From: a virus
UHGV virus genome: UHGV-0314755
Length of the DNA: 10,374 bases
Reading direction: 5' to 3' (one strand)
This document shows, piece after piece, positions 5,560-10,374 of this stretch (position 1 is the first letter of the stretch; every line of letters begins with the position of its first letter). The translations under genes were made by a program, and so were the position numbers. The notes beneath the pieces were generated by a model, which searched no databases, was not told the DNA's origin, and worked only from the letters and a program-made list of their open reading frames with translations.

Positions 5560-6000
5560 CTATTCACAATTAGTGATGGCGTATGTATCAAATATATTGC
5601 CATCACTAAATACATACCTATACTCAATCTCTCCGCCAAGGTGAATAAATGCTTTCATTTGCCTGTTGGAGCAAATGCTCGATTTTGAATAATTTCGCAT
5701 TACACTCTTTAATTTATTTTCTAAGGTTACATCACCATTATAAACTTTTGATAAATAGCTGTTGTTGTAATTAAGATGCGCTACAACTAAGAGTTTGTTT
5801 AGTATTGCATTTATTGAAACAATAGACATATTATCATTCAATTTTATGGGAAGTGACTTTCCTGCTTCTGATGCAATTTTGTTTGCATGTGCACACATAT
5901 CCTCATTTATTAAATTCTTAAAACATATGTCGTTTGCAAACGAAAAAATTGGTAGGATAAACAAAACGGTAGCTGTAATAGCGTGCATCGGCTTAATCAT
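5560..6000 (-). CDS. Small secreted (periplasmic) protein of unknown function, 146 aa; AT-rich cargo gene
   Basis: Only long ORF in a strongly AT-rich segment. N-terminus MIKPMHAITATVLFILPIFSFA/ND has the shape of a Sec signal peptide (positive n-region, hydrophobic core, A-x-A-like cleavage site). The mature part has 4 Cys and is N/K/I/S-rich. An AAGG motif lies 7 nt upstream of the ATG at 6000 (minus strand). The stop (5560-5562) abuts the stop of the 1129-aa gene on the other strand. No recognised family. Confidence 0.5.
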   Translation of the reverse strand: MIKPMHAITATVLFILPIFSFANDICFKNLINEDMCAHANKIASEAGKSLPIKLNDNMSIVSINAILNKLLVVAHLNYNNSYLSKVYNGDVTLENKLKSVMRNYSKSSICSNRQMKAFIHLGGEIEYRYVFSDGNIFDTYAITNCE

Positions 6001-6012
6001 TAGGTGACCTTT

Positions 6013-6462
6013 ATGTTCAAGAAGATGATCAACAGATTAATCGGTGGTAAGGAGGTTAGCAATAAAATTCAACCTCTTATCTTTAAGGATAACTTTTCAG
6101 CTTTTGAGTATGCGTGTAAGTATCTTGACACAAGCCTTTCAGCCAATAAACCAATGCCAGCCATCATCATACCTGGTCCCAGTGGGGAACAGCCAGTTTT
6201 GCTGGATTCTGGAAGACAAAGGGCAATGCTGAAGGTGTGCTCAGCTGATGGTGGATTTTTTGTTATTGCCGATTCATCTTACAGCAAAGGACCAAAGCTG
6301 AGGATTGGTGATCTTGTTGCTTGGTTGCCTGTGAGTTATGCCGAAGAATTAACGGATAAAATAGAAGATCCTCGCTCCGCTATGGTTGGCTTTATATTGG
6401 GAACCATTCATCCTGAACTAACATCTACTGGCTGGAAGGGTAAAGAAAGATTTCGCAAGTAG
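6013..6462 (+). CDS. Hypothetical cytoplasmic protein, 149 aa (cargo gene)
   Basis: ORF open from GTG 6004; the preferred start is ATG 6013, with SD AGGTGA (6002-6007) and a 5-nt spacer. Ends TAG at 6460-6462 and is followed immediately by an intrinsic terminator. No TM segment or signal peptide. No recognisable family by eye. Confidence 0.6.
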   Translation: MFKKMINRLIGGKEVSNKIQPLIFKDNFSAFEYACKYLDTSLSANKPMPAIIIPGPSGEQPVLLDSGRQRAMLKVCSADGGFFVIADSSYSKGPKLRIGDLVAWLPVSYAEELTDKIEDPRSAMVGFILGTIHPELTSTGWKGKERFRK

Positions 6463-6475
6463 CGTGACATGTCAC

Positions 6476-6500
6476 AGGCCGCTTTCGCGGCCTTGTTTTT
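6476..6500 (+). terminator. Rho-independent terminator for the plus-strand transcript (after the 149-aa gene)
   Basis: 7-bp GC-rich stem AGGCCGC/GCGGCCT with loop TTTC (6476-6493), followed by TGTTTTT (6494-6500). It is preceded by a perfect 12-bp palindrome, GTGACATGTCAC (6464-6475). Confidence 0.7.
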
Positions 6501-6537
6501 AACGAATGCCACCGCCGCCCGGGTGGGAATCCGCAGA

Positions 6538-6563
6538 CACAAAAAAGCCCGCGCCGCGGGCTT
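6538..6563 (-). terminator. Rho-independent terminator for the minus-strand transcript (after the 210-aa gene); with the previous feature it forms a convergent terminator pair
   Basis: Palindrome AAGCCCGCG-C-CGCGGGCTT (6545-6563) followed on the minus strand by a T-run (plus-strand AAAAAA at 6541-6546). It lies 4 nt downstream of the TAA stop of the 210-aa gene (6567-6569, minus). Confidence 0.7.
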
Positions 6564-6566
6564 CTA

Positions 6567-7199
6567 TTAATGCAGTTTATCTTTGCTTATAACCAGTAGT
6601 CTGTGGGTATGCACATCTTTATCACTGCCCCAACAGAAATCAGCCCACTGGCTATAGAAATCATCCCATGATGTCATGAAGCTAAGAGGTCTATCTTCTT
6701 CAGAGCCATCTGAAACGTATACATTATATCCCGGGGTGTTTATAGCCCAAGAAATCATTCTTTCCCAGAATCTTCTCCCATCGATTGTTTGTTGCTCATC
6801 AGATACAACGATCGCATATTGCTCTAGGAAGAACTGAAAAAAAATCTGAGGCAAACCATGAACAGCACGGTCATGAATAACATTAGGCGTACGCCATACC
6901 ATGATCTGCGTACATGTTCTTTTGGCTTCGACGATATCTTCCCGAAAGATTAACTTAACCGCATACACCGTTTCTGGAGTATCGCTGGTAGTAATCATTC
7001 TGTAATGATCGCCATTACAAGATTTTACAAGGCGATAACCATAAGGTGTTGTGAATCCCGGAAGAACGAAATCAACCACACCTTTCGCTAAGTAGCTTTC
7101 GGTGTGACTAGTGTTCTTCTCAGACATGTTCAGTTTTCTATCGAAATCTGCTTCTGGGATAATGTATGGCATCGCTTTTCTTGTTGTATTTGTTTTCAT
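6567..7199 (-). CDS. Hypothetical protein, 210 aa (orphan cargo gene, Trp/aromatic-rich C-terminus)
   Basis: Strong SD GGGAGGA 5 nt upstream of ATG 7199 (minus strand). Clean ORF ending at a good terminator. No TM segment or signal peptide. Operator copy 1 (TTACC-N5-GGTAA) lies 60 bp upstream, overlapping a TAATAT -10-like hexamer. No family recognised; an R-x5-H motif (RTPNVIH) is noted but is too short to interpret. Confidence 0.7.
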   Translation of the reverse strand: MKTNTTRKAMPYIIPEADFDRKLNMSEKNTSHTESYLAKGVVDFVLPGFTTPYGYRLVKSCNGDHYRMITTSDTPETVYAVKLIFREDIVEAKRTCTQIMVWRTPNVIHDRAVHGLPQIFFQFFLEQYAIVVSDEQQTIDGRRFWERMISWAINTPGYNVYVSDGSEEDRPLSFMTSWDDFYSQWADFCWGSDKDVHTHRLLVISKDKLH

Positions 7200-7258: not shown

Positions 7259-7273
7259 TTACCCGTAAGGTAA
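7259..7273. promoter_or_regulatory. Operator copy 1: palindrome TTACC-cgtaa-GGTAA upstream of the 210-aa gene
   Basis: Exact TTACC(N5)GGTAA. It overlaps a candidate minus-strand -10 (TAATAT, 7278-7273), with a weak -35-like TTGGCG 18 bp further upstream (7302-7297). It is one of three copies in the window, all in non-coding regions upstream of or between minus-strand genes. Confidence 0.5.
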
Positions 7274-7338: not shown

Positions 7339-8049
7339 TCAGAAGAACCCTGCCTTGTCGTTGATGTACTCCGCGTGCGTCTGGATATCACGCAGGCATT
7401 TGCTCACACCGACGATGTAGCAGAACATGGTGGTCAGCTCCGCCGCCGCGCCCGATACGTCGTGCCCGTCTTCCTGTAACTGGTTCAGCAGATTCATCAG
7501 CAGTGAGTTTTCCGTCAGGCCGAGAACACCAGACGGAGAATGAATCAGGCTGCGGTAGCCGGGCTTCAGTGGGGCGCTGTAGGTTTTGTTCTCTATCTTC
7601 ATTGCCTGCATCACTGCTGATGCTGTGGCGTTGGCTACCTGGTCGGCAACCATCTTTATGCGTTCTTCCTGCGGGAGCGAGTTTTTAATGTAACTTCCTG
7701 TGCGGCGGATCTGAGGAAGAACCTCACCTGTAACCCATTTACGAAAGCGGTAGGGGATAGTGCCTGGTGTTACTGCATCGCGGCAGCGGAGGATCAGTGT
7801 GTAGAGGCCTGACTCGGAGATGATGTTGATCTCTTTTACTCGGCTGTCAAAAATTGCACGATGTTCATGCCCTATGTTGAACATAGACCTTTCATCATCA
7901 TCCAGTTTTTCAAGTGATTGGGTGACGTTTTGGATACGCAGCGCACTACAAACGTCTTGGGCTACAAACCATGGTTGGCCATCGATAATGATGGAACGGA
8001 TAGGGTTAACAGATTCAAATTTGAAGATGGCAGTTTGAGCATTAGCCAT
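7339..8049 (-). CDS. ant: Phage antirepressor, 236 aa: Bro-N-type N-terminal domain plus Ant-type C-terminal domain
   Basis: N-terminus MANAQTAIFKFESVNPIRSIIIDGQPWFVAQDVCSALRI matches the Bro-N / P22-antirepressor N-terminal signature (F.F....IR....DG.PWFVA.DVC..L). Preferred start is ATG 8049, with SD GGAGA and an 8-nt spacer; the ORF track's extension to 8064 uses a GTG with no SD. The C-terminal ~65 aa are about 45% identical to the 85-aa protein encoded at 8365-8622. Confidence 0.85.
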   Translation of the reverse strand: MANAQTAIFKFESVNPIRSIIIDGQPWFVAQDVCSALRIQNVTQSLEKLDDDERSMFNIGHEHRAIFDSRVKEINIISESGLYTLILRCRDAVTPGTIPYRFRKWVTGEVLPQIRRTGSYIKNSLPQEERIKMVADQVANATASAVMQAMKIENKTYSAPLKPGYRSLIHSPSGVLGLTENSLLMNLLNQLQEDGHDVSGAAAELTTMFCYIVGVSKCLRDIQTHAEYINDKAGFF

Positions 8050-8060
8050 GGTGGTTATCT

Positions 8061-8145
8061 CCACTTAGTGATTTTAATCACCACCGCAACGCCAATTACT
8101 GGTGGTGAACTGGACAAGGTTGGCGTACCGGCCTAAGTGGTACCG
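8061..8145 (-). promoter_or_regulatory. Candidate promoter/operator region of the antirepressor gene
   Basis: Minus-strand -10-like TAAAAT (8076-8071), about 20 nt upstream of the ant start region. An 8-bp inverted repeat, TCACCACC (8078-8085) / GGTGGTGA (8101-8108), sits over the -35 region. The 8-mer CCACTTAG occurs at 8061-8068 and 8234-8241, and inverted (CTAAGTGG) at 8133-8140. GTACCGGC is directly repeated at 8125-8132 and 8140-8147. Promoter assignment is tentative. Confidence 0.35.
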
Positions 8146-8205
8146 GCGTCCTTTCGGACCCCTGCCCAGCCCACCATAATTCGGATATAGCTGTGCTTAA
8201 CGCAT

Positions 8206-8228
8206 AAAAAAACCACGTCTGGCGTGGT
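8206..8228 (-). terminator. Rho-independent terminator on the minus strand, between the small Ant-like gene and the antirepressor gene
   Basis: Minus strand reads ACCACG-CCAGA-CGTGGT followed by TTTTTTT (plus-strand A7 at 8206-8212). It lies downstream of two further hairpins (8247-8262 and 8262-8283). Confidence 0.55.
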
Positions 8229-8302
8229 ATGCGCCACTTAGTAACTCGGGACGCCAATCCCGGCACTGGATTTTGCCAGTGCCCGATTACTATGGCACAA
8301 GA

Positions 8303-8346
8303 GGAGTGCAATGTAAATTTACCGCAAAGGTAAATATAAGCACTCC
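8303..8346. promoter_or_regulatory. Operator copy 2: TTACC-gcaaa-GGTAA (8319-8333) embedded in a longer imperfect palindrome
   Basis: Exact TTACC(N5)GGTAA core, flanked by the inverted 7-mers GGAGTGC (8303-8309) and GCACTCC (8340-8346). It lies 19 bp downstream of the small Ant-like gene's stop and about 270 bp upstream of the ant start. Confidence 0.5.
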
Positions 8347-8364
8347 ATTTGGTAATTGCAAACC

Positions 8365-8622
8365 TTATCTGGTTTGTTTTCGTAATTGTTCGGCACAATA
8401 GTCGAGATGTGTTTGCAGATCCTGCATAGACATCTGTGAGCTGGTGACGTAGTTAATCAGTGCAGTCAGTTCGGCAAGTGGGCCATCGACATTAAATCCA
8501 TCCTTATCGAGATCCCGGAGTAATTTCATCAAGTGCGATCCCTCCACCAGTGACCTGACGCCTCCCGGCGTGTGAATCCTTTCGGTAAATCCGTCTTCCA
8601 GTGGATAGTGATACTGCTGCAT
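8365..8622 (-). CDS. Small antirepressor-like protein, 85 aa: free-standing homolog of the Ant C-terminal domain, probably SOS-controlled
   Basis: Preferred start ATG 8622 (SD GGAG, 8-nt spacer); the ORF track's start at 8637 has no SD and would leave only 7 bp between the start codon and the LexA box. The sequence TERIHTPGGVRSLVEGSHLMKLLRDLDKDGFNVDGPLAELT...DLQTHLDY aligns with the ant product's LIHSPSGVLGLTENSLLMNLLNQLQEDGHDVSGAAAELT...DIQTHAEY. A near-consensus LexA box lies immediately upstream. Confidence 0.75.
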   Translation of the reverse strand: MQQYHYPLEDGFTERIHTPGGVRSLVEGSHLMKLLRDLDKDGFNVDGPLAELTALINYVTSSQMSMQDLQTHLDYCAEQLRKQTR

Positions 8623-8642: not shown

Positions 8643-8662
8643 AACTGTATGTTTATACAGTA
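8643..8662. promoter_or_regulatory. LexA (SOS) box upstream of the small Ant-like gene
   Basis: AACTGTATGTTTATACAGTA matches the E. coli LexA consensus TACTGTATATATATACAGTA at 17 of 20 positions, with CTGT-N8-ACAG intact. It overlaps a TATAAA -10-like hexamer on the minus strand and is the only such box in the window. Confidence 0.8.
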
Positions 8663-8699: not shown

Positions 8700-8714
8700 T
8701 TACCTGAAAGGTAA
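8700..8714. promoter_or_regulatory. Operator copy 3: TTACC-tgaaa-GGTAA in the divergent region between the small Ant-like gene and the tailspike gene
   Basis: Exact TTACC(N5)GGTAA, preceded by the palindrome TTTGCAAA (8692-8699). It lies about 80 bp upstream of the small gene's start and about 105 bp upstream of the tailspike ATG. Confidence 0.5.
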
Positions 8715-8818
8715 TATCTATTCATATTCACAGTCTTTCTATCCATATGTGGTTTTTCAGGTAATAGAATAACCAGATATGCGGCGCAACGGGTGCTGCG
8801 ACTATCTGGAGATTTAAC

Positions 8819-10374
8819 ATGACGGTCTCAACCAAAGTTGACCACAACGAATACACAGGTAACGGCGTTACGACATCGTTTCCGTATACTTTTCGAATTT
8901 TCAGAAAATCAGACCTGGTTGTTCAGGTGTCTGACCTGAACGGGAACGTAACAGAATTGGTTCTGGATACCGGTTATACGGTAATTGGGGTGGGAGCTTA
9001 TAGTGGTGGTACAGTGGTTCTTCCGTCGCCGCTTGCTGCTGGCTGGCGAATCACTATAGAGCGTGTGCTTGATGTGGTGCAGGAGACTGACCTTCGAAAT
9101 CAGGGGAATTTTTTTCCAGAAGTTCATGAGGATGCATTTGACTACCTGACGATGCTGATTCAGCAGTCTTTTTCTGGTCTATCTCTTGCACTCAGAAAGC
9201 CATCACGTTTATCAAATTATTATGATGCTCGTGATAACAGAATCCAAAACTTAGCAAGCCCAATTCTCCCGAACGATGGTGTAAACCGTAATTTTGTAGA
9301 AAACCTTTTTATTGATAAAAGCGCATCTGCTTCTGCATTGCGCTCTTTGCTGGAAAGCGCAGCTGGGGCTGGAATAATTGGTACATTGCAGGGATTAACC
9401 GTTCAGTCAGTTTTAGATAATGTAAAAATCCCACTGACGTCATTCGTGTTTTCTATTCCTGATGATTTTGCTAATGCAGATTCTTTAGCAGAATATCTTG
9501 AAAATAGATGCTATACCGGCACGCAAGTAATAGTACATGTCTCAGCAGGCACTCATAATTGGAATACTCTAAATAAGATTTTTGGGAAAGAGTGGGGTTT
9601 TGGCCGACTTAAATTTGTTGGTGAAGGAATGGATTTGACAATTATTCAGTTTCTTAAACAGGACGGAATTTATGCTGAAGCAGGTGAGTGTTATGGTCAT
9701 GCGCCACAGTTTCCCGTGAGTGGTGGTGATATAATACCAATATTTAGTAATTTAACTATATCAGGAATTGACAGAGATTCAGGAATTGATGATCCATATC
9801 TTGATTCAATGGGGATAAGGGCGTTTGACGGCGGTGTTGTTGTACTTGATGAAAGCGTAAGAATAACTCAGTTTTCCAGGTGTGGAGTTATGGCTGAGAG
9901 GCATGGTATAGCTTTTGTTCCTGGGGTTAAAGTCGATACTACAGGTTCTGATTGTTTCGCTGCCTCTGAAGGTGGTTATATCTATTGTCCAGACTCTACA
10001 GCAAGCAACCCGAAAGGTCATTGCTACATCGCATATTCTGGAGGGCAGCTTTATATGCCTAACTGTATTGCCCAGAATGCAGAGACACACAACTCGTCAA
10101 ATGTAGGGGGATCTGGTCTTGTGTTGACCGGAAGCAGTTACGCTTACGCTATTAATCTTCAAACTAAAAACAATGCTCAACGTGGAATTAGTGTGGCGTT
10201 AGGGTCTTTTCTACGAGCTGACGGGTTTACTGAGAGTGAAAATATTCTACCTGTGACTGTTTCGCAGGGTTCCACGTTGGTTTCTCCAAATTGCACAATA
10301 AACAAACCAGATGCTCTTGCGCTTTTAATTGAGAAAGGAGGAAAGGCATTTTTCCAGGTAGCAACAACTGATAA
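8819..10374 (+). CDS. Tailspike protein, 5'-partial view (518+ aa; runs off the window end), with an epsilon15/Det7-type conserved N-terminal particle-binding domain
   Basis: Not in the supplied ORF track because no stop falls within the window; I translated it by hand from ATG 8819 (SD GGAG 8808-8811) and found it open to the end. N-terminus MTVSTKVDHNEYTGNGVTTSFPYTFRIFRKSDLVVQV...ETDLRNQG...LTMLIQQ matches, from memory, the conserved N-terminal domain shared by tailspikes of epsilon15-like and related enterobacterial phages. The downstream part is lower in GC and not recognisable. Confidence 0.88.
   Translation, partial: MTVSTKVDHNEYTGNGVTTSFPYTFRIFRKSDLVVQVSDLNGNVTELVLDTGYTVIGVGAYSGGTVVLPSPLAAGWRITIERVLDVVQETDLRNQGNFFPEVHEDAFDYLTMLIQQSFSGLSLALRKPSRLSNYYDARDNRIQNLASPILPNDGVNRNFVENLFIDKSASASALRSLLESAAGAGIIGTLQGLTVQSVLDNVKIPLTSFVFSIPDDFANADSLAEYLENRCYTGTQVIVHVSAGTHNWNTLNKIFGKEWGFGRLKFVGEGMDLTIIQFLKQDGIYAEAGECYGHAPQFPVSGGDIIPIFSNLTISGIDRDSGIDDPYLDSMGIRAFDGGVVVLDESVRITQFSRCGVMAERHGIAFVPGVKVDTTGSDCFAASEGGYIYCPDSTASNPKGHCYIAYSGGQLYMPNCIAQNAETHNSSNVGGSGLVLTGSSYAYAINLQTKNNAQRGISVALGSFLRADGFTESENILPVTVSQGSTLVSPNCTINKPDALALLIEKGGKAFFQVATTD

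Follow-up and report, generated by a model that had tools for sequence, protein, structure and literature searches.

The viral genome UHGV-0314755 includes a stretch of 10,374 nucleotides (10.4 kb; hereafter the window) that forms part of an epsilon15/phiV10-like (Uetakevirus) phage or prophage of Escherichia coli. Two antirepressor genes that share one homologous helical domain of ~75 residues lie on its minus strand, with the DNA-injection genes on one side and the tailspike gene on the other, and the locus constitutes an 'immI-like' accessory region of an epsilon15/phiV10-type prophage. The smaller gene encodes a stand-alone antirepressor of the SPC32H Ant type behind a LexA box, and the larger one encodes a fusion of a Bro-N domain with a second copy of the same domain, preceded by a cassette of two small RNAs of the IsrK and C4 types. 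This arrangement probably represents a single Rep-binding domain of shuffled origin that has been wired, through two antirepressor genes, to two inputs, namely the SOS response and an RNA immunity switch.

The LexA-associated antirepressor gene

The small gene (8622..8365, minus strand) begins with an ATG that follows a GGAG Shine-Dalgarno sequence and encodes 85 amino acids (aa); its coordinates and size, like those of the larger gene, had been given correctly by a first-pass annotation made from the sequence alone. Its product is ~88% identical over the full length to the Ant protein of Salmonella phage SPC32H and matches chain E of PDB 5D50, designated 'Anti-repressor protein' (E=4e-47, aa 2-84 on 3-85), as well as phrog_450 (E=9e-48). 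Compared with the SPC32H Ant/Rep system (PDB 5D50 and 5D4Z), the gene has the same length and the same tailspike-side position, divergent from the tailspike gene, and the LexA box is found in the same place. As judged from sequence, the small gene is an already characterised protein, the ortholog of SPC32H Ant, and is referred to here as 'type A'. Kim et al. reportedly described SPC32H Ant in 2016 as a tetramer in complex with Rep, and 5D50, with eight Ant and eight Rep chains, is consistent with a tetramer. The small Ant domain lacks a Pfam or NCBIfam model and has no curated family model, and PADLOC likewise returned no model for the domain that the two proteins share. The PGAP label for the ortholog of the small Ant is 'hypothetical protein' in every covering row among the E. 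coli matches listed.

Upstream of this gene lies the LexA box CTGTATGTTTATACAG (8645..8660), the sole perfect CTGT-N8-ACAG in the window, both half-sites of which are invariant in SPC32H, phiV10, ZX5 and HEMP4. No perfect CTGT-N8-ACAG occurs between 8050 and 8365, and hence none precedes the Bro-N gene, in agreement with the earlier claim that a LexA box is present on the small gene only. The deposited sequences of SPC32H and SPC32N show two differences in 5.2 kb, one of which converts ACAG to AAAG in the box homologous to 8645-8660. Kim & Ryu are said to have reported in 2013 that SPC32H Ant is controlled by LexA and that SPC32N makes Ant constitutively, an account that the box mutation of SPC32N fits. 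For the small gene, a promoter scan returned no consensus sigma-70 promoter. In addition, a one-mismatch LexA-like site, CTATTCATATTCACAG, is located at 8718-8733, ~60 bp upstream of the perfect box, in the interval that separates small ant from the tailspike gene; with six such sites found in the window against 3.5 expected, it may have arisen by chance.

The small open reading frame (ORF) is a maintained gene and not a decaying fragment. Its dN/dS is 0.055 (against SPC32H and Tyrion), and its homologs fall into 136 clusters, most of which are full-length at 85-86 aa; the possibility that it is a pseudogene was rejected.

The Bro-N fusion and its shared C-terminal domain

The larger gene (8049..7339, minus strand) encodes 236 aa from its ATG and matches both phrog_130, annotated as 'anti-repressor Ant', and phrog_450. 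Its Bro-N domain (aa 17-112, 7714..8001, minus strand) is recognised by PF02498 with E=3.4e-19 and 69.7 bits, compared with a gathering score of 25.6. The Ant-like C-terminal domain, termed 'type B', spans aa 155-231 (7357..7587, minus strand). In BLASTP, aa 155-228 of the large protein align without gaps to aa 2-75 of the small one (31/74 identities, 42%, E=1e-19), which upholds the first-pass estimate of ~45% over ~65 aa as a significant similarity. The C-terminal domain also matches PDB 5D50_E with E=1.2e-13 and phrog_450 with E=4e-36, and hhalign of separately built type A and type B profiles gave 99.7% probability (E=1.5e-26) over 79 columns. By these sequence comparisons, the similarity of the shared domain is real and far beyond chance, and a chance resemblance of the two proteins was rejected as an explanation. 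The conserved block corresponds to a complete antirepressor that has been crystallised with its repressor (PDB 5D50), in keeping with its original designation as the presumed repressor-binding unit. A free-standing gene for ~86 aa, divergent from the tailspike gene, is one feature of the SPC32H-type Ant; the small gene shows it, and the fusion, which encodes a two-domain protein of 236 aa, does not.

Full-length homologs of the fusion, 226-238 aa long, are found in Escherichia, Salmonella, Citrobacter, Enterobacter and Leclercia, and its dN/dS is 0.18-0.25 (0.27-0.32 for the C-terminal domain). Both genes are therefore maintained under purifying selection. It is hardly credible that one of the two copies is merely a non-functional leftover of recombination, even though damaged relatives do exist: in phiV10, the Bro-N gene p23 (19551-20230) is frameshifted inside its Ant-like C-terminal domain and the 29-aa p22 is an out-of-frame remnant, the metagenomic variant P0164 has an in-frame deletion of the first half of the fusion's C-terminal domain, and TL-2011b carries an insertion between the two genes. 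All observed cases of decay thus concern the C-terminal domain of the large gene, and the small ORF is spared. Apart from the dN/dS values of both genes, a remnant is contradicted by hundreds of full-length copies across genera and by RNA control elements that are intact and covarying. The two-gene segment has a match in 534 of the 5426 complete E. coli genomes, 183 of which contain at least 80% of it, and this also argues against decay.

An IsrK/C4 RNA cassette ahead of the Bro-N gene

The interval between the two genes holds a terminator, as the first-pass annotation had stated, and this terminator (8228..8206) belongs to an IsrK-like small RNA (sRNA), which had been missed together with the C4 RNA that follows. 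A sigma-70-like promoter, TTTACA-17-tgCATAGT (8317..8289, minus strand), detected by promoter scan, would start a transcript ~7 nt downstream at ~8282, which is position 1 of the Rfam isrK model. The IsrK-like sRNA (8206..8282, minus strand; RF01394, 67.2 bits against a gathering score of 50) contains b1 (TTGGCGT, 8257-8251) and a1 (CTAAGTGG, 8241-8234) and ends in the intrinsic terminator, 8228-8206, that the terminator scan detected; the Rfam model RF03163 (c4-a1b1) scored 44.3 bits at 8295..8243, just under its gathering score of 46.7. Next comes a C4-type antisense RNA (8098..8181, minus strand; RF01695, 66 bits against a gathering score of 45), with a' (CCACTTAG) in a loop at 8140-8133 and b' (ACGCCAA) in a single-stranded stretch at 8126-8120. 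The leader of the Bro-N gene (8059..8095, minus strand), delimited from sequence and covariation, bears second copies of both targets, b2 (TTGGCGT, 8095-8089) and a2 (CTAAGTGG, 8068-8061), and a2 overlaps the GGAG Shine-Dalgarno sequence of the Bro-N gene (8062-8059), nine bases ahead of the ATG at 8049.

Thus, a' is complementary to a1 and a2, and b' (ACGCCAA) to b1 and b2 (TTGGCGT). These complementarities were read directly from the sequences, as RNAduplex applied to whole RNAs gave long, meaningless duplexes. The IsrK/C4 pair is present in the window and in 10 other phages, and across these 11 phages a', a1 and a2, like b', b1 and b2, covary in step. The a' CCACTTAG with CTAAGTGG as a1 and a2 in the window is replaced by a' CCTTTTAG with CTAAAAGG as both a1 and a2 in ZX5 and TL-2011b, by a' CCTTTGTAG with a1 CTACAGAGG and a2 CTACAAAGG in Tyrion, and by a' CCGATAAC with GTTATCGG as both a1 and a2 in 118970_sal3; in phiv142-3 and Tyrion, b' is AGACCAA and both b1 and b2 are TTGGTCT. 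This three-way covariation supports the pairing of C4 with both target copies. The intergenic terminator is part of an IsrK/C4 RNA cassette of the P1 immI or Gifsy-1 isrK-anrP type that is predicted to control the Bro-N gene, and the regulatory outcome of C4 pairing would follow by analogy with P1 and Gifsy-1.

A coupled upstream ORF corresponding to icd or orf45 is not evident in the window, where only a 20-aa ORF starting with TTG (8117..8055) and without a Shine-Dalgarno sequence was found, such that orf45 is absent or vestigial. The cassette occurs in 257 phage records, including Stx phages, in which it precedes unrelated antirepressor genes. Phages whose flanking genes show 95-100% identity differ in C4 specificity class, as exemplified by the a' loop (CCACTTAG in the window versus CCTTTTAG in ZX5) and by b' (ACGCCAA in the window versus AGACCAA in phiv142-3), a situation that parallels the heteroimmunity of P1 and P7 immI. 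Annotated coding sequences for an 'Ash family protein' lie over the C4/IsrK RNA genes in ZX5 (1779-1892) and in Hafnia phage yong2 (1088-1771), and the RNAs themselves are unannotated in both records; the 37-aa 'Ash family' coding sequence of ZX5 was probably called in error on the C4 RNA gene.

Exchange of modules in an old domain family

The two copies of the domain in the window fall into two subfamilies with distinct C-terminal halves, type A ending in ...NYVTSSQMSMQDLQTHLDYCAEQLRKQTR and type B in ...CYIVGVSKCLRDIQTHAEYINDKAGFF. These subfamilies are old and the copies do not stem from a recent or local duplication; a recent tandem duplication was rejected accordingly. The first-pass suggestion of domain duplication and shuffling is hence borne out in its second part: the second copy goes back to the shuffling of modules within an old domain family and not to local duplication. 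Type B also exists as a free-standing protein of 95-97 aa, and five different N-terminal modules have been found ahead of the domain, namely Bro-N, AntA, Phage_pRha, ORF6N and P22_AR_N, the last in TL-2011b gp42. An exhaustive profile search of 1.84 billion representatives retrieved only 64 clusters, which indicates that the family is small. A word-indexed search with the small protein had found free-standing close relatives only, the fusions surfacing with a query for the C-terminal domain and with the exhaustive profile search.

Several phages carry the domain more than twice. HEMP4 contains three copies, i.e. a small type A gene, a Bro-N-B fusion and, adjacent to the integrase gene, an AntA-B ORF (1600-2286). 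TL-2011b likewise has a small type A gene and a Bro-N-B fusion, together with a P22_AR_N-B protein behind an Arc-like gene with a sar RNA (third-copy region at 31060-32244 and 31231-31298). The genome from which the window derives may also carry a third type-B copy outside the window.

Sequence identity along the locus is mosaic. In sliding-window comparisons with ZX5 and phiV10, identity is 95-100% across the small gene and over the remainder of the Bro-N gene from approximately codon 70, and drops to 40-80% in the stretch formed by the 3' half of IsrK, C4, the leader and the beginning of Bro-N. Relative to phiv142-3, in which the N-terminal module is AntA, identity is ~30-60% across the whole N-terminal domain and ~90-100% from the start of the C-terminal domain, and the mosaic junctions lie at or near the domain boundary. 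This pattern implies that the RNA specificity class and the N-terminal module have been swapped while the type-B domain was kept. Within one phage lineage, the exchanged N-modules comprise two Bro-N variants (67% identical to each other), AntA and P22_AR_N, and the type-B C-terminal domain is 89-100% identical.

The free exchange of N-modules also bears on whether the shared domain might be an oligomerisation module, i.e. a tetramer scaffold on which the Bro-N domain does the actual work, either DNA binding or some other regulation; in a variant of this view, the fusion would not be an antirepressor of Rep at all, or would form mixed and possibly inactive tetramers with the small Ant. Such a role would agree with the reported tetramer of SPC32H Ant and the eight chains each in 5D50, and with the largely hydrophobic or structural nature of the residues that are invariant between types A and B. 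It would also agree with the predicted fold of the N-terminal domain: AlphaFold2 modelled Bro-N confidently (pLDDT ~87), and a Foldseek search of the model against PDB gave weak Bro-N-type matches to the SKI/Dachshund DHD and Mbp1 APSES domains, DNA-binding domains that Bro-N-like folds resemble. However, swapping the N-module freely while retaining the type-B domain runs counter to what an N-terminal domain with the specific function would lead one to expect, and a free-standing type-B protein of 95-97 aa exists, which makes a mere scaffold distinctly improbable.

Two further members of the family deserve mention. The metagenomic protein P0139 (84 aa) has a type A-like N-terminal half and a type B-like C-terminal half, suggesting recombination between the subfamilies. 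Moreover, a free-standing type-B gene (95 aa) resides in a small chromosomal island of Klebsiella quasipneumoniae and its relatives (5665-6873), next to an AlpA-like gene, a DUF1902 gene and, in 3/4 loci, a HicA-toxin gene, and with no phage structural genes nearby. This island may be a satellite or a remnant equipped with an antirepressor for a helper prophage.

The repressor and the target of the fusion

The phiV10 protein p40 is homologous to SPC32H Rep (5D50_A, E=4e-42), as are the Rep proteins of the relatives, and Rep of HEMP4, TL-2011b and an E. coli prophage at guaA is 98-100% identical to that of phiV10. The E. coli phage Rep and SPC32H Rep share about 45-50% identity, as estimated by eye from an alignment, and 42% identity has been given for the Rep proteins of ZX5 and epsilon15 (PMC9782041). 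The Bro-N protein of ZX5, ORF4, has a C-terminal domain 100% identical to that of the window fusion, and its overexpression lowers prophage numbers ~1000-fold and rep transcription by 75% (PMC9782041); the same study makes no mention of the small gene, LexA or SPC32H. The C-terminal domain of the fusion is inferred to be its repressor-binding part, acting on the same phiV10-type Rep as the small Ant.

The first-pass annotation had alternatively pictured two antirepressors aimed at different repressors, for instance those of co-resident prophages. In such a cross-talk model, type A would neutralise the phage's own Rep and type B would be tuned to the repressor of a co-resident or incoming phage. 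The two types are only 42% identical and form separate conserved subfamilies with distinct C-terminal halves, phages with the small Ant only exist, type-B genes occur outside Uetakevirus prophages (e.g. in the small Klebsiella island by the AlpA-like gene), and there is a precedent in FsoA of Fels-1, which acts on the Gifsy-2 repressor (Lemire et al. 2011; PMC3121763). Nevertheless, the model is unlikely to be correct: type B (89-100% identical) always accompanies the same Rep (98-100%) in phiV10, HEMP4, TL-2011b, ZX5 and the guaA prophage, types A and B diverge in parallel in Tyrion and ST11-OXA245phi3.2, and overexpression of ORF4 shifts ZX5 itself towards lysis (PMC9782041). Cross-talk is thus disfavoured, and it and the two-input model are not mutually exclusive.

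A proposed two-input circuit

In the two-input reading, LexA would repress the 85-aa gene via the box at 8645-8660, and DNA damage would lead to production of Ant, which is expected, given the ~88% identity and the conserved box, to strip the non-cleavable Rep from its operators. This mode of Rep removal is said to have been demonstrated for SPC32H. The 236-aa gene would be transcribed from its own promoter and gated by the RNA cassette, in which a'/b' of C4 would pair with b2/a2 in the leader, hide the Shine-Dalgarno sequence and block translation of the Bro-N protein. The IsrK-like sRNA would supply decoy a1/b1 copies and end in an attenuating terminator. The C4 block could be lifted by IsrK or by other transcripts with a1/b1 copies, among them those reading through from the LexA promoter, as the terminator scan found no terminator between 8365 and 8283. 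The SOS channel would accordingly serve induction, and the RNA-gated, class-specific channel, which is akin to the secondary immunity regions of P1 and P22, would serve the infection/establishment decision or commitment.

Both ant promoters are accompanied by an operator-like palindrome. TTACCTGAAAGGTAA (8700..8714), conserved in SPC32H, lies upstream of the small ant promoter, TTACCGCAAAGGTAA (8319..8333) abuts the -35 element of the IsrK-like promoter, and TTACCCGTAAGGTAA (7259..7273) is located downstream of the Bro-N gene and upstream of a 210-aa ORF. The window contains three perfect copies of TTACC-N5-GGTAA against 0.17 expected; with one mismatch allowed, phiV10 and HEMP4 contain 14 each against fewer than one expected, almost all of them intergenic and often paired 48-62 bp apart, including two in the interval that separates rep from the cro-like gene. 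This sequence probably represents the Rep/Cro operator. Should the copies at both ant promoters truly act as operators, the earliest Ant molecules would relieve repression of further Ant synthesis, so that Ant production would become self-reinforcing by positive feedback once Rep starts to fail.

Several points weigh against the two-input reading. The repressor gene is not inside the window, and the assignment of the palindromes to Rep follows from position only. Types A and B, at 42% identity, could have different partners, and the residues common to both types could mark the core of the Ant tetramer and not the Rep interface. Structure prediction, which had been put forward as a check and which delivered a confident Bro-N fold, was less informative for the C-terminal domain: the AlphaFold2 model of this part has moderate to low confidence only (pLDDT 56-77) and Foldseek against PDB did not recover 5D50, so structure adds nothing beyond the sequence match. 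The model systems differ in direction, since C4 of P1 represses and IsrK of Gifsy-1, in trans, activates via orf45. Finally, SPC32H and epsilon15 are without the Bro-N cassette, and phiV10 is viable with its frameshifted C-terminal domain; the fusion is hence dispensable and the Bro-N unit accessory.

A wider version of the same scheme can be entertained more tentatively. The locus would then be part of a multi-input network in which a warhead domain, in two or three copies per genome, is attached to interchangeable N-terminal chassis and placed behind different sensors (LexA, the C4/IsrK RNA class, Arc/sar and, for one copy, a site beside the integrase gene), with feedback and possibly mixed tetramers. 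If this were true, the C-modules of Bro, AntA, pRha, ORF6N and P22_AR proteins as a class would be repressor-specific warheads, and the N-modules would be generic.

Comparison with known systems and significance

All parts of the locus are already known, i.e. the SPC32H-type Ant, the Bro-N module and the C4/IsrK cassette. SPC32H possesses a single ant gene, to which the window adds a second copy of the domain, fused to Bro-N and under RNA control. The immI region of P1 and P7 (c4-icd-ant; Rfam CL00128) likewise places a C4-type RNA upstream of an antirepressor gene, with a1/b1 upstream and a2/b2 over a ribosome-binding site; it differs in that the window has no icd-like coupled ORF and places a2 on the antirepressor's own Shine-Dalgarno sequence. 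Moreover, the C-terminal domain of the window antirepressor is unrelated to P1 Ant, and the cassette of the window lies downstream of a LexA-controlled gene. The isrK-orf45-anrP region of Gifsy-1 comprises IsrK with its own promoter and a leaky terminator, the C4-like processed RNA STnc1160 and an antirepressor-like gene (Hershko-Shalev et al. 2016; PMC4825925). The window shares this order, except that orf45 is absent or vestigial, and no Gifsy record was found among the 34 phage records with the Ant-like domain.

The immI region of P22 (mnt-arc-ant, with sar) occupies the same genomic position, from the injection genes to the tailspike gene. TL-2011b, a relative of the window phage, contains an Arc-like gene, a sar RNA and a P22_AR_N protein with a type-B domain at its end; the window, unlike P22 immI, is without arc, mnt or sar. 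Among small LexA-controlled proteins, Tum of phage 186, GfoA, GfhA and GftA of the Gifsy prophages and AntC of N15 inactivate a non-cleavable repressor (PMC3121763). The small Ant of the window would follow the same logic. In the 2013 account of Kim & Ryu, the SPC32H class is reportedly structurally distinct from the other LexA-controlled small antirepressors.

Domain shuffling among phage regulators with BRO, KilA-N, AntA, pRha, ORF6N and P22_AR modules is said to have been described by Iyer, Koonin & Aravind in 2002. The window fusion likewise combines an N-terminal Bro-N with an exchangeable C-module that is found behind five N-modules. Unusually, this C-module corresponds to an antirepressor that also exists on its own and whose complex with its repressor has been solved. 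What appears to be new is that an Ant existing as a protein of its own also serves multi-domain antirepressors as their C-terminal module, and that two to three copies of the domain per genome appear behind different controls. Genes for 'antirepressor-like' proteins with Bro-N, AntA, pRha or ORF6N rank with the most common and most poorly understood genes of prophages, and the homology of the C-module to the solved Ant provides a structure-guided hypothesis on which half recognises the repressor. Such phages, which are present in approximately one in ten complete E. coli genomes and include O157 typing phages, could in this way reach their repressor via an SOS channel and an RNA-gated channel, and two-channel access of this kind would be relevant to spontaneous induction and to superinfection among related prophages.

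Setting of the locus

Segment 7200-8900, which contains both genes, shares 97% identity with Escherichia phage HEMP4 and 91-95% with ZX5, TL-2011b and phiV10. Two large plus-strand ORFs of the window match internal-virion/injection proteins, and the epsilon15-type tailspike gene begins at 8819. A tRNA scan of the window found none. Three moron-like ORFs are located at 5560-7199, encoding 146 aa (minus strand), 152 aa (plus strand) and 210 aa (minus strand); with zero matches in Pfam, NCBIfam and PADLOC, they match only the PHROGs 8772, 9944 and 1349, all of unknown function.

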